A stretch of DNA of 42,704 nt from an uncultured Nitrososphaerota archaeon. GTDB taxonomy: Archaea; Thermoproteota; Methanomethylicia; Nezhaarchaeales; WYZ-LMO8. A model generated the notes under the pieces. The model was not told the origin of the DNA and did no database searches. It saw only the letters and a program-made list of their open reading frames with translations. Positions 18,393 through 40,321 of the stretch are shown piece by piece. Within the stretch, counting starts at the first letter, position 1, and every line of letters begins with the position of its first letter. The position numbers and the translations under genes were made by a program. Location: contig CAZLVJ010000003.1 of assembly GCA_964562935.1 (NCBI GenBank), positions 1-42,704 of the forward strand. The letters are read 5' to 3'.

Positions 18393-18507
18393 TGGTGCGG
18401 GGGGTGGGATTCGAACCCACGAAGGCCTACGCCACGGGATCTCTCATCCGGCCTCCGCGCGAGTGAGATCTTAAGTCCCGCCCCTTTGTCCGCTCGGGAA
18501 CCCCCGC
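18393..18507 (-). tRNA. tRNA-Leu(TAA) with 29-nt intron and encoded CCA
   Basis: Acceptor GCGGGGG/CCCCCGC, anticodon arm CGGGA-CT-TAA-GA-TCCCG after intron removal, long variable arm, GTTCGAATC T-loop, ACCA end; 86 nt mature. Confidence 0.95.
18441..18469 (-). other. tRNA intron at canonical 37/38 position (BHB)
   Basis: Central helix CUUA/UGAG with 3-nt bulges AG|A and AG|A; removal restores the 7-nt anticodon loop. Confidence 0.9.
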
Positions 18508-18532
18508 TCTCAACGCAACTCTTTTGAGGGAG

Positions 18533-18540
18533 CTTAAAAA
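18533..18540 (-). promoter_or_regulatory. TATA box of tRNA-Leu
   Basis: TTTTTAAG on the minus strand about 26-33 nt upstream of the tRNA 5' end. Confidence 0.55.
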
Positions 18541-18585
18541 GCTTGATGTGGAGCGCGATCGCCTTTTATTGCCAGCCACAACACT

Positions 18586-19685
18586 ATGAGTGGGTGCGCT
18601 CTCGTGAAGTTCTTCGAGGCCAGGAGCGTGGAGTGGAGAGACGGGGTCGTGAGGCTCATAGATCAAAACGCCCTGCCCTGGGAGCTGCGTTACGTGGAGT
18701 GCAGGAGCCCCGAAGAGGTCGCGAGGGCCATAAAGGACATGACCGTGAGGGGGGCTCCAGCGATAGGGGTTGCTACTGCCATGGGGATAGCGCTCGCGGC
18801 TTACCACTCAAACGCCAAGAGCTTAGAGGCGCTCCTGAGGGAGGTCGAGGAGGCGGCTCGGGCTCTGTCTAGGGCCAGGCCAACAGCTAGAAACCTCTTC
18901 TGGGCCATCGAGAGGATGATGAGTGCCGTCAAGAGGGCCAAGAGCCTTGAGCAGGCCAAAAGGATTGCCGTGGACGAGGCCATTAAGATGGCGGAAGAGG
19001 ACGTTGAGGTGAACAGGAGGATAGGCGAGATAGGCGCCTCCCTGATAGAGGACGGCGACGCGATACTGACCCACTGCAAACAGCTGGGCTGAGTAGGCCC
19101 AGCTGGCAGATTGCGGGGGCGCTGGCGACTGTAGGGTACGGCACGGCCCTAGGCGTGATTAGGAGCGCGGTTGCCCAGGGGAAGAGGGTAAAGGTCATAG
19201 CGACCGAGACGAGGCCGAGGCTCCAAGGGGCGAAGCTGACGGTGTACGAGCTCAAGAGGGACGGCATAGACGTGACGCTCATAACGGACAACATGGTCGG
19301 CTACGTCATGAGCCAGGGGATGGTGGACAAGGTCGTCGTGGGGGCAGACAGAGTGTTGAGGGACGGGCACGTGGCCAACAAGATAGGGACTCTGACCATA
19401 GCCATAGTGGCCAAGAGGTACTCAGTGCCCTTCTACGTGGCGGCCCCCTCCTCGACGTTCGACTTGAGCTCGAGGGTCGAGGACGTGGTCATAGAGCAGA
19501 GGGATCCGAGAGAGGTTCTGGAGGTTAACGGGAGGCCTATAACGATAGACGTGGAGGTCCTCAACCCGGCTTTCGACGTAACGCCGCCCGACTTGGTAAC
19601 CGCGATAATAACGGAGAAGGGCATAATAAGGCCTCCTTACCACGAGAACATACCCAAGACTGTAGCGAAGGCGACAAACGTTTAA
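18586..19685 (+). CDS. mtnA: Methylthioribose-1-phosphate isomerase (eIF2B-like family), spliced: join(18586..19079,19112..19685), 355 aa
   Basis: IDQ..LP, MTVRGAPAIG, ARPTA.NL, and after removal of the 32-nt insert THCNAGALATVGYGTALG, ETRPRLQG, VGADR, NKIGT, NPAFDVTP; the two ORF-track fragments are in different frames; true start may be GTG 18604. Confidence 0.9.
19080..19111 (+). other. Putative BHB-type mRNA intron (32 nt) in mtnA
   Basis: CUGC(19074-77)/GCAG(19106-09) 4-bp helix, bulges AA|A and AU|U, 9-bp intron stem CAGCUGGGC/GCCCAGCUG; splicing gives AA+U = Asn of HCNAG. Confidence 0.85.
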
Positions 19686-19802
19686 CTGGACCCTGCAAAC
19701 TATAGCGTGGGCGATGAAAGGTCAGAGTTAAGATGAACGGTGATTAAAAGGCATTAGGTTGAGCCCCAAGAGATAAAAATGTGAGTGCTCAAGTAGAGAG
19801 GG

Positions 19803-19880
19803 GCGGCCGTCGTCTAGCCTGGACTAGGACACCAGCCTTCCACGCTGGCGACCCGGGTTCAAATCCCGGCGGCCGCACCA
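19803..19880 (+). tRNA. tRNA-Gly(TCC) with encoded CCA
   Basis: GCGGCCG/CGGCCGC acceptor, CCAGC-CT-TCC-AC-GCTGG anticodon arm, GTTCAAATC T-loop, ACCA; AT-rich gataaaaat about 25 nt upstream. Confidence 0.95.
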
Positions 19881-20107
19881 GAACACATCAACTGATGAGG
19901 GTTTCGTCGGCGACTCTCCTTTGCTTCACGGCACATGTCGCCGCCGTGAAACATGGAGCGCACACATCCTTGATTATTGACGGCCCTCTGAGCGCTAGAT
20001 TGCAAACAAGCCTTAGGCCTCTACGGGTCAACGATCTTGACTATTCAAGGCTTTGAATTCCGCGATTTGTCAGTCTAAGGAGTATCTGGGCAGATCCTCC
20101 CTTAGAC

Positions 20108-38048: not shown

Positions 38049-38093
38049 CTGATTCTATTATAGTGAAAGTTTTTAAGTCGACCATGTGTTGAA

Positions 38094-38513
38094 GTGGTAT
38101 GCTCGGGGGCTATCGCTTTGGATAGCGCGACGAAAAGGCTCTTAAGGCTTAGGTTGAAGATGAACAGAATGAGAGTGAAGTTTAGGAGGCTAAACACCTT
38201 AAAGCTCAAGAGGGTCGATGAAGAGAGCTGGAGGAGGCCCAGGGGGATAGATAACAAGATAAAGTGGTCTAGAAAGGGGTATCCCCCTCTCGTCAGGATA
38301 GGTTATCGCAATCCCAAGGCCGTTAGGGGATTACATCCCTCCGGCTTGATCGAAGTTCTTGTTCGTAGGCCTCAAGACTTGGAGGGCTTAGATCCTAGGA
38401 AGCATTGCGTTAGAATAGCTCGCACCGTCGGGAGAAAGAAGAGGCTTCAAATAATTGAGAAGGCTAAGAGCATGGGCCTTAGGATCCTCAACGCTGTTGG
38501 TGTTGAGGCATGA
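38094..38513 (+). CDS. rpl32e: Ribosomal protein eL32
   Basis: WRRPRGIDNK, IGYR.P..VRGLHPSG; start uncertain (TTG 38118 possible). Confidence 0.95.
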   Translation: MVCSGAIALDSATKRLLRLRLKMNRMRVKFRRLNTLKLKRVDEESWRRPRGIDNKIKWSRKGYPPLVRIGYRNPKAVRGLHPSGLIEVLVRRPQDLEGLDPRKHCVRIARTVGRKKRLQIIEKAKSMGLRILNAVGVEA

Positions 38514-38956
38514 ACTTGGGCATTGTTAAGAGGCTAGCGGCCGAGGTCCTAGGGGTAGGGGAGAGCAGGGTCTACATAGATCCCTCTAGGATCGACGAAG
38601 CCGCTTCTGCGATAACGAAGGAGGACGTCAGGAAACTGATTGAGAAAGGCGTAATATCAGCTAAGCCAATCAAAGGGACTAGTAGGGCGAGGGCTAGGCT
38701 TAGACATCTTAAGAAGCGCAAGGGCTTGAGGAGGGGCGAGGGCTCTCGCAAGGGCTCTATAGCTGACTTGGAGAGGAGGTTGTGGATCGCAAGGGTGAGG
38801 GCGCTTCGAAAGTACCTCAAGATGTTGAGGGACAGGAGGTTGATCGATAAGAAGACGTATAGGATGTTGTATAGGCTGGTCAAGGGAGGAGCGTTCCAAA
38901 GCAGGACCCATCTGAAAGAGTACGTAAAGCAACAAGGCCTCTTAAGGAGGGTCTGA
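38510..38956 (+). CDS. rpl19e: Ribosomal protein eL19
   Basis: KRLAA..LGVG..RV.IDP, AIT..DVR.LI, G.GSRKG, Y...KGG.F. Confidence 0.96.
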   Translation: MNLGIVKRLAAEVLGVGESRVYIDPSRIDEAASAITKEDVRKLIEKGVISAKPIKGTSRARARLRHLKKRKGLRRGEGSRKGSIADLERRLWIARVRALRKYLKMLRDRRLIDKKTYRMLYRLVKGGAFQSRTHLKEYVKQQGLLRRV

Positions 38957-38957
38957 C

Positions 38958-39569
38958 TTGGTTAAGAGAAAGGTCATAAGGCGGGTGCCCTTTAAGAGGA
39001 GGAGGAAGGGTCTAACGGACTACAGGATGAGAATGAAGACGCTCCTCTCTGGCAAGCCGTTGCTGGTGGTTAGAAAGACCAATACCCAAGTTATCGTTCA
39101 AGTGGTAAAGCCTGAGATTAAGGGTGACAGAGTTTTAGCCCAGGCTACGGGTAGAGAGCTGAGGACGAAATTTGGCTGGCCGGCTTCGGGCAAAAGCACC
39201 TCCGCGGCATATTTGGCCGGCTACCTTGCTGGGCTTAGGGCCCTGAAAGCTGGTGTGAAGGAGGCAATTTTATACATAGGCTTGCACAGAGCAGTGAGGG
39301 GCTCTAGGGTCTTCGCTGCCCTTAAGGGAGCGCTTGACGCTGGGCTCAGGATTCCTCACAGCCCTGAAGTGCTTCCCTCAGAGGAGCGAGTCAAGGGCCT
39401 CCACATAGTCGACTATGCGAGAATGCTCAAGGAAACAGATCCAGAGGCCTTCGAGAGGCAGTTCTCCGCTTACCTGAAAACTGGCTTCGACCCGGAAAAG
39501 ATAGTGGATGCCTTCGAAGAAGTGAAGAAGAGGATAGAACAAGCAGTACGACTACAAGTAGCGGAATAG
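38958..39569 (+). CDS. rpl18p: Ribosomal protein uL18
   Basis: RRRKGLTDY..R, LVVRKTN, AAYLAG, GSRVFAALKGA.DAGL.IPH. Confidence 0.96.
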   Translation: MVKRKVIRRVPFKRRRKGLTDYRMRMKTLLSGKPLLVVRKTNTQVIVQVVKPEIKGDRVLAQATGRELRTKFGWPASGKSTSAAYLAGYLAGLRALKAGVKEAILYIGLHRAVRGSRVFAALKGALDAGLRIPHSPEVLPSEERVKGLHIVDYARMLKETDPEAFERQFSAYLKTGFDPEKIVDAFEEVKKRIEQAVRLQVAE

Positions 39570-39658
39570 CGAGAAGCATTCCATAGTTTTAAAGGAAAGC
39601 TTAAAATAATCCCCTCAACGTGTAGGTTTCACTATCTAGCATAAATATGAATTAGAGG

Positions 39659-40321
39659 ATGATGGAAATGTCCTCGCTTGACGCTTGGGTACCGGCGACG
39701 TATGTAGGGAGATTGGTGAAGGAGGGCAAGATAACAAGCATAGACGAGATCTTCGCCAACAACTTGACGATAAAGGAGCCGGAAATAGTCGATGCGCTAC
39801 TACCCGACTTAAAGCACGAAGTAATCGACGTGAAGATAGTTCAGAAGCAGACGGACATCGCCTAGCGAAGCGCTAGGCGACCGTAAGCTGGCGAGATCTC
39901 GAGGTTCAAAGTAGTGGTGGCTGTAGGCAACGAAGCGGGCTACGTCGGGTTGGGCTTCGCCAAGGCCAAGCAGATGAGGGAGGCCATAGACAAGGCGATA
40001 GTGGAGGCCAAGCTCAACATAATCCCTGTCAGGCTCGGTTGTGGGAGCTGGGAGTGCAGGTGCGGCAGGCCGCACAGCGTGCCGATAAGGACTTGGGGCA
40101 AGGCGGGGAGCGTGGAGATGACCCTAATACCAGCGCCTCGAGGAACGGGCTTAGTGGCTGGCGACACGGCCAAGATAGTGCTCAGGCTCGCCGGGGTCAA
40201 GGACGTCTGGACCCTCACCAAGGGCGAGACTAGGACCAAAGAGAACATGGCGAAGGCGGCCCTCGAAGCACTTAGGAATACGCTGGCCTTCAAGTCGGTG
40301 AAGGACTGGGCGAGAGCATGA
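39659..40321 (+). CDS. rps5p: Ribosomal protein uS5, spliced: join(39659..39856,39887..40321), 210 aa
   Basis: [59 protein letters not shown]; 30-nt insert carries in-frame TAG and TAA. Confidence 0.93.
39857..39886 (+). other. Putative BHB-type mRNA intron (30 nt) in uS5
   Basis: Exon helix CAG/CUG, central helix ACGG(39851-54)/CCGU(39881-84), bulges AC|A and AA|G, 10-bp intron stem UCGCCUAGCG/CGCUAGGCGA. Confidence 0.92.

Follow-up and report, generated by a model that had tools for sequence, protein, structure and literature searches.

Short inserts in core genes of a hot-spring archaeon are probable pre-mRNA introns of the tRNA-splicing type

A contig of 42,704 nucleotides (the window) from an uncultured Nezhaarchaeales archaeon raises the question of whether the enzymes that splice tRNAs also act on mRNAs in this lineage. 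Within the window, the genes for an mtnA-family protein (S-methyl-5-thioribose-1-phosphate isomerase or eIF-2B-related) and for ribosomal protein uS5 are each broken by a short insert that can be folded into a bulge-helix-bulge (BHB) structure, and a tRNA-Leu(UAA) gene close to mtnA has a BHB intron of its own. A sequence-only reading of the window saw in these three inserts the mark of a lineage with widespread mRNA splicing by the endonuclease EndA. Our analysis indicates, with a probability of roughly 0.88, that the inserts are pre-mRNA introns of the archaeal BHB type, like the adjacent tRNA-Leu intron, and that EndA and RtcB splice them. One entire contig (C3) makes up the window; it belongs to a metagenome-assembled genome (MAG), here called G000, of 1.14 Mb in 123 contigs (69% complete, 53.6% G+C). 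The DNA sequencing runs that contain the stretch are hot-spring metagenomes.

The inserts in mtnA and uS5

The BHB model used has a 4-bp central helix and two 3-nt bulges, each cut between its second and third base (cuts are marked here by a slash). The mtnA insert forms the central helix CUGC with GCAG (4/4 pairs), bulges AA/A and AU/U and a 10-bp inner hairpin; its outer helix is weak, as in the relaxed HBh' form. In uS5 the central helix is ACGG with CCGU (4/4), the bulges are AC/A and AA/G, and a 10-bp inner hairpin is accompanied by a 3-bp outer helix. Both inserts have the places and sizes that the sequence-only reading gave them (Table 1).

Exon pieces were scanned separately against NCBIfam profiles. 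Exon 1 of mtnA ends in LTHC plus the AA of an Asn codon, and exon 2 opens with the T of that codon, followed by AGALATVGY. Dropping the insert rebuilds CTG ACC CAC TGC AA/T GCG GGG, that is LTHCN-AG, and the one profile position between the two matches to NF004326 (166) is the split Asn. Excision in uS5 links QKQTD with AGEISRFK, and the exons adjoin on NF003125 without a gap. For both genes the cuts restore alignments to hidden Markov models: the exon pieces are contiguous on the family profiles and the junctions match intron-less orthologues to the base. The presence of the window's introns is confirmed. It is far more than chance, because cut sites derived from structure only equal the insert boundaries seen against intron-less orthologues to the base. 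The earlier view of both mRNA inserts as real BHB introns in conserved motifs of core genes is upheld, as are its observations that all six bulges and all three introns of the window start with A (AGA and AGA in tRNA-Leu, AAA and AUU in mtnA, ACA and AAG in uS5) and that the introns have no shared sequence and no open reading frame (ORF).

Table 1. Coordinates of interrupted genes, BHB inserts and exons in the window and in other contigs of genome G000
Feature	Position	Strand	Basis or remark
mtnA-family exon 1	18586-19079	+	NF004326 9-165, TIGR00512 1-158, Pfam IF-2B 2-114
mtnA BHB intron, 32 nt, phase 2	19080-19111	+	inside Asn codon AA/T
mtnA exon 2	19112-19685	+	NF004326 167-354 from residue 1; TIGR00512 160-334
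uS5 (30S ribosomal protein S5) exon 1, 66 codons, ends VQKQTD	39659-39856	+	NF003125 3-66; TIGR01020 4-65
uS5 BHB intron, 30 nt, phase 0	39857-39886	+	between codons, in-frame TAG
uS5 exon 2, opens AGEISRFK	39887-40321	+	NF003125 67-208 from residue 1; Pfam Ribosomal_S5 17-65 and S5_C
aIF5B intron, 30 nt	C1 81090-81119	minus	EVGAM/TQHIGAS; found by structure scan
aIF2-gamma intron, 33 nt	C1 78668-78700	minus	DCPGHE/MLMATM
pyrG (CTP synthase) intron, 32 nt	C4 6007-6038	minus	structure scan
pyrG micro-exon, 33 nt, 11 codons	C4 6039-6071	minus	between the two pyrG introns
pyrG second intron, 20 nt	C4 6072-6091	minus	found reading upstream
tRNA-Leu(UAA) gene	18393-18507	minus	ARAGORN with introns allowed; fold; sequence reading
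tRNA-Leu BHB intron, 29 nt	18441-18469	minus	canonical 37/38 position, after position 37

The class of the host lineage is small, with 62 genomes available, and the named records whose mtnA protein is most similar (64-72% identity) come from MAGs that bear the labels Thermoprotei, Desulfurococcaceae, Ignisphaera, Sulfolobales or Bathyarchaeia. We searched 40 relatives, from the organism's own family (f1), sister families in the same order (f2 and f3) and families f4-f8 of the same class, and for each gene mapped both exons on the 30 loci returned. Both mRNA introns of the window recur in these related MAGs. The uS5 insert lies at the same codon boundary in 14 of the 30 loci (all f1 and f3) with lengths of 22-34 nt, and the other 16 (f2, f4-f8) are contiguous. 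Of the 61 genomes of the class that gave a match, 14 have a uS5 open frame of 143-150 aa and 46 have one of 201-228 aa; in the last genome a contig end cuts the frame. The mtnA insert sits inside the Asn codon in 9/30 loci, all f1 (27-32 nt), while 21 read TGY AAY GCN unbroken; one f1 genome had no mtnA match in this search. Helix pairing was counted in the splice-site register over distinct sequences. In uS5 (14 sequences) 91% of cells are paired and 6 of the 14 pair positions carry double changes, such as a central G-C to A-U; in mtnA (8 sequences) the figures are 82% and one of 14, and the outer helix is absent. When one partner is displaced by 1-3 bases, pairing in these two introns drops to 17-47%.

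G000 is a fragmented, incomplete MAG with about ten frame breaks of one or two bases relative to a class-level relative (G016) that look like errors, and the inserts might be explained in the same way, as sequencing or assembly errors, or as signs that the host genes are decaying pseudogenes. Against this, each insert recurs in other genomes that were assembled independently (9 to 20 of them, two being single-contig), the hosts are essential genes with flanks conserved at 55-100% protein identity, and the helices covary. We regard such an explanation as negligible.

The tRNA-Leu intron has the central helix CUUA with UGAG (4/4 pairs), bulges AG/A and AG/A, and the anticodon stem as its outer helix. 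Its size and place are as first proposed, according to ARAGORN with introns allowed. The gene is missed by default ARAGORN and by Rfam at gathering score, at which only a tRNA-Gly was found in the window. Across G000, 12 of the 23 tRNA genes received an intron call from ARAGORN with introns allowed; four of the called introns, at 268-1470 nt, look doubtful, and two tRNA-Tyr calls lie 150 bases apart on contig C11.

Two side observations concern strain variation and coverage of the window. Contigs of two hot-spring runs (X4, X5) swap 1,759 bases at 25526-27286 for 82 other letters and 197 bases at 28609-28807 for 58; related strains therefore differ by gene-sized replacements at these places. 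No joint at the uS5 intron is listed in DNA contigs of four hot-spring metagenome runs over 20400-40399, and because contigs cannot show absence they were not used as evidence.

Further introns in the genome and its relatives

Further BHB-interrupted genes, which the sequence-only reading expected, were found in G000 for the translation initiation factors aIF5B and aIF2-gamma and, with two introns, for CTP synthase (pyrG); cbf5 is a further host in relatives. The refuting case named by that reading, a lack of such genes elsewhere, thus does not hold. The genome total is at least six coding-sequence introns in five genes. On their profiles, the aIF2-gamma exons cover 3-96 then 97-411 of NF003077 and those of aIF5B cover 4-44 then 45-590 of NF003078. 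On NF003792, pyrG exon 1 matches 3-43 and exon 3 matches 57-530, and the 12 residues between them are supplied by the micro-exon plus its two split codons. The genes for aIF2-gamma and aIF5B adjoin, about 400 bases apart (C1 77,720-81,275, minus strand), and a nucleoside-diphosphate-kinase-like ORF lies directly upstream of aIF5B.

The aIF5B insert (27-33 nt) is present in 20/30 loci, from f1, f2, f3 and five genomes of one f5 genus, the other 10 being contiguous. By open-frame length as a proxy, the short form is seen in 41 of 59 genomes of the class and the long one in 16, the frame being cut in 2; the sequence-level check covers 20 of the 41. Inserts in aIF2-gamma (31-35 nt) and both pyrG introns (19-27 nt and 30-33 nt) each occur in 10 of 30 loci, all f1. 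The remaining 20 are contiguous in aIF2-gamma and read the 12 codons of pyrG unbroken; in 5 of those 20 pyrG loci the exon-1 match is short and the computed gap inflated, and the printed sequence is continuous. Paired cells and positions with double changes are 96% and 5/14 in aIF5B, 86% and 2/14 in aIF2-gamma, 77% and 1/12 in pyrG intron 1, and 70% and 1/12 in pyrG intron 2, with no outer helix in either pyrG intron.

All of these inserts share one build. The central helix is fully paired (4/4) in all seven introns of G000, tRNA-Leu included, and its cells are paired almost without exception in relatives (uS5 56/56, mtnA 32/32, aIF5B 79/80, aIF2-gamma 40/40, pyrG 39/40 and 38/40). Sliding one helix partner by 1-3 bases drops pairing to 15-59%. 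An inner helix of 4-10 bp is present in all. tRNA-Leu, uS5 and aIF5B also have an outer helix, of 6 bp for aIF5B in G000; the introns of mtnA, aIF2-gamma and pyrG (both) are relaxed HBh' forms, with this helix missing or broken. In G000, A is the first base of every one of the seven introns and of 13 of the 14 bulges, the exception being the aIF5B 5' bulge, UGA. The introns contain no ORF, and no sequence is common to them except that the pyrG pair shares both ends. Every host is a core gene and every site a highly conserved motif. Insert lengths in relatives vary and are often not multiples of three. The joint exon sequence differs between intron-bearing and intron-less genes so as to build the helices: in aIF5B it is GTTGGGGCCATG/ACCCAAC when the intron is there and CCTGGAACTATG/ACTCAAC in intron-less genes. 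The two pyrG introns lie in copies of a single target, ACCCNTAC/AT, that occurs twice in intron-less genes. Group I or group II introns were rejected as a class, with inserts of 20-33 nt against a ribozyme core of hundreds of bases, and so were inteins, for which the inserts are too short and carry stops or shift the frame.

The number of introns was assessed by two scans. The structure scan combined BHB geometry with ORF joining over G000, and the best compact, strongly paired candidates were judged by eye. It returned about 163,515 BHB-like placements (12-400 nt) and 1,132 compact hairpin forms, and by itself is far too noisy. Nine of the 12 top ORF-joining candidates were rejected after reading. 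One (C6 15987-16015) sits between prs and ligT genes, one (C59 4578-4608) lies upstream of the lysK start, and those on C9, C13, C84 and C5 join adjacent genes. In-frame hairpins coding conserved residues account for C20 3689-3718 (AOR), C2 19263-19292 (IleRS) and window positions 27985-28014 (an MFS transporter). This last motif, on the minus strand inside ORF 27328-28557, is a perfect BHB-like structure (4-bp central helix, 9-bp hairpin, 30 nt, in frame, stop-free), and we take it as a chance hairpin because it encodes a plausible membrane-helix segment, WLSLGAIALL. A BHB motif alone is therefore insufficient to call an intron.

The homology scan compared 9,023 six-frame ORFs of G016 (a complete 1.52 Mb contig) with G000, seeking split or stop-interrupted alignments. 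It recovered mtnA, both pyrG introns, aIF2-gamma and uS5, and no further intron in G000 survived inspection. The aIF5B intron, which G016 shares, is invisible to it. Put to the same test, a congener (G005, 95% complete, first 800 kb) yielded the same genes and no new host, and a search for conserved alignments beginning right after a stop gave nothing new. Leads at C19 13973-14484, C56 526, C12, C109 and G005 423577 were rejected as shadow-frame or gene-start artefacts. Also rejected was G005 C1 at about 257,750 (minus), where two adjacent copies of a 19-bp tandem duplication break the frame of a 444-aa conserved gene. The scan is blind to introns shared with G016 and to those in poorly conserved genes, and the census is therefore a lower bound.

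The density of introns in the window would predict tens genome-wide, and the sequence-only reading had argued for many more on this ground. That expectation fails: the two scans added four introns, spread over three genes, in the remaining 1.1 Mb, and the 800 kb of G005 showed the same set. That a single 42-kb window holds two mRNA introns is in part luck. Several intron-bearing mRNAs do exist, which bears out one part of the claim of widespread mRNA splicing; the lineage carries about six or seven such introns, not dozens, with the same set across the family, and 'widespread' overstates this.

Other irregularities were seen in these comparisons. Frame switches of one or two bases relative to G016 orthologues, with no insert, occur in G000 at C25 ~9480-9500, C35 4615, C45 6185, C72 3730 and C73 ~1630, and the same kind at C98 ~860, C100 ~260, C37 and C40; these are probably MAG assembly errors, or real frameshifts. 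The reverse scan (G000 and G005 ORFs against G016) found one 22-nt insert in a radical-SAM gene (G016 C1 1,089,665-1,089,686; L115 9665-9686). Relative to the G005 orthologue it lies just before the CxxxCxxC motif; a canonical BHB could not be drawn, and it may be a relaxed intron or a frameshift. At C1 ~689,390-692,620 (L356-L357), G005 also has extra pieces relative to G016, with lengths near 29 nt and near 223-229 nt. This stretch is highly conserved (65-88% identity in shadow ORFs) and is probably an rRNA operon, and the extra pieces may be rRNA introns.

Proposed splicing by EndA and RtcB

The proposed dependence on EndA accords with the gene content of the genome, which encodes a two-subunit EndA and RtcB (contig C19). 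The two EndA genes (PF01974; contigs C5 and C11) match complementary halves of a two-unit EndA model, one fitting the C-terminal half and the other the N-terminal half or beta; one also weakly matches 'subunit beta'. Hetero-oligomeric EndA accepts relaxed motifs outside tRNA, according to the accessible text of two papers (PMC2738675; PMC5829648), and the predicted two-subunit enzyme of G000 fits this broad-specificity type.

In the pre-mRNA, the 4-bp central helix would arise between the final bases of the upstream exon and the intron's 3' end, the remainder of the intron would fold as a GC-rich hairpin, and the two 3-nt bulges would stay on opposite strands. The alpha/beta two-subunit EndA would then cut each bulge between its second and third base and RtcB would ligate the exons, restoring an open frame through the conserved motif. 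The spliced products would hold the junction peptides LTHCN-AGALAT, QKQTD-AGEISR, EVGAM-TQHIGA, PGHE-MLMAT and DPYINVDAGTMNPYMHG. Every intron carries a stop or shifts the frame, and unspliced mRNA can therefore only yield truncated protein. Thus, uS5, the mtnA-family isomerase, aIF5B, aIF2-gamma and CTP synthase would depend on the tRNA-splicing enzymes.

Alternatively, the inserts could be kept in the mRNA, with ribosomes bypassing them or shifting frame, or with each gene made as two polypeptides. Because translation in archaea is coupled to transcription, ribosomes could come upon RNA that is still unspliced, and a GTG is present 9 codons into uS5 exon 2. However, the breaks fall inside compact conserved motifs (THCN/AG, DxPGHE/M, GAM/TQHIGA) and the 11-codon pyrG micro-exon cannot be a separate protein. 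Furthermore, insert lengths drift (22-34 nt) yet a BHB with the correct cut register is kept, which only the endonuclease explains. Retention of the inserts is therefore very improbable.

From the motif, the frame-restoring junctions, the covarying conservation and the enzyme genes we infer cleavage and ligation in the cell. Several points weigh against removal by EndA and RtcB. Splicing is read from DNA, and the listed sequencing runs with the stretch include no RNA run. Among the six coding-sequence introns of G000, three (mtnA and both in pyrG) have little or no outer helix and that of aIF2-gamma consists of interrupted pairs only, and these introns would thus rely on the relaxed specificity reported for heterotetrameric EndA. 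Covariation is thin in mtnA and both pyrG introns: each shows one double change, within a group of closely related genomes. Because of the relatedness of the genomes, the locus counts are not independent events.

Known BHB introns, stepwise gain and possible mobility

Archaeal tRNA and rRNA BHB introns have the same motif and the same predicted enzymes as the inserts described here, which are similar in size to the neighbouring 29-nt tRNA-Leu intron. The tRNAs of some Crenarchaeota have introns at many sites, and such introns have transposed in Thermoproteales. Unlike in tRNA, no tRNA body aids recognition in the present cases and the exon half of the motif is coding sequence, and codon choice at the junction is therefore constrained. 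A BHB intron in the cbf5 pre-mRNA of Crenarchaeota was reportedly described by Watanabe in 2002 and Yoshinari in 2006.

The inserts resemble this cbf5 intron as portrayed in the accessible text of Yokobori 2009 (PMC2738675): it is short, lies in a protein-coding gene within a catalytic motif, is often a relaxed BHB cut between the second and third bulge base by hetero-oligomeric EndA, and is gained and lost along lineages. That paper places the intron in the catalytic Asp codon, tabulates lengths of 19-44 nt and treats other genes as merely predicted hosts. The G000 assembly does not contain cbf5; in relatives (G013, G010, G009) the gene has a 19-23 nt BHB intron inside the same Asp codon, GTL/D/P, the length being 19/22 nt for G013 and G010. 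Unlike cbf5, the hosts here are uS5, the mtnA-family isomerase, aIF5B, aIF2-gamma and CTP synthase, there are several hosts per genome, and one gene has two introns around a 33-nt micro-exon; also unlike cbf5, splicing is predicted here from sequence rather than confirmed by cDNA.

A second archaeal precedent, as far as the accessible text goes (PMC7714728), is the BHB intron in the 5' untranslated region (UTR) of HVO_1309 in Haloferax volcanii. It too is an mRNA substrate of the archaeal splicing endonuclease, with splicing confirmed in vivo and in vitro, but it lies in the UTR of a euryarchaeon and restores no frame. HAC1/XBP1 splicing of eukaryotes, in the portion of PMC4090602 consulted, is also a spliceosome-free removal of a short mRNA intron by a protein enzyme, with joining by a tRNA ligase and alteration of frame and protein; there, the nuclease is IRE1, with a different stem-loop motif, and the reaction is a stress-regulated switch.

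The description of such splicing as under-recognised holds for the searchable papers. The accessible text of PMC7714728 (2020) names only cbf5 as a coding-sequence BHB host, plus one 5'-UTR case, and that of PMC2738675 likewise gives cbf5 alone. We found no report of uS5, mtnA, aIF5B, aIF2-gamma or pyrG as BHB hosts in the searchable literature, a scope that excludes supplements and subscription journals. New here are five further host genes, all essential or central, one with two introns and an 11-codon micro-exon, and the conservation of the introns at the level of a family, an order or a large part of a class.

The distribution indicates that the set was built stepwise, with the aIF5B intron widespread in the class, that of uS5 in two families of the order, and those of mtnA, aIF2-gamma and the pyrG pair specific to family f1. 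One possibility, to which we give somewhat less than an even chance, is that the introns share the proposed splicing mechanism and form a small and static collection of old relics passed on by vertical descent, not actively spreading or widespread. The same introns occur in every family member examined (aIF5B, aIF2-gamma and pyrG in 10/10 f1 loci, mtnA in 9/9 f1 loci with a match), neither G000 nor 800 kb of G005 revealed a further host gene, and no sequence is common to the introns apart from the pyrG pair. On the other hand, at least four introns (those of mtnA and aIF2-gamma and the pyrG pair) were gained in the family and are missing from its sister families, the pyrG pair is located in a duplicated target, and the aIF5B intron is patchy in f5 by the open-frame proxy, the frame being short in most genomes and full length in G022, G024, G034 and G047.

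The placement of both pyrG introns in a repeated 10-nt target is suggestive, as one clue for reverse splicing. A bolder and rather unlikely reading is that a guild of mobile mini-BHB introns settles in sequence coding for invariant motifs of essential genes, as inteins and homing introns do, inserted by reverse splicing or a related RNA-level route; the two pyrG introns would then be what one such duplication left behind. With cbf5 included the hosts number six, and four of them act in translation or ribosome biogenesis (uS5, aIF2-gamma, aIF5B, cbf5), and therefore the set would tie the capacity for translation start to EndA and RtcB activity. If true, this link would be a global control point without a described counterpart in archaea.

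In summary, tRNA-splicing enzymes are probably needed for production of a ribosomal protein and two initiation factors in these organisms. Gene callers will wrongly annotate intron-bearing genes of this type as split or broken, and genome quality and metabolic inference for such MAGs therefore suffer. The dated, stepwise gains offer a concrete case in which the entry of protein-spliced introns into mRNAs can be tested, a process that bears on ideas about intron origins.

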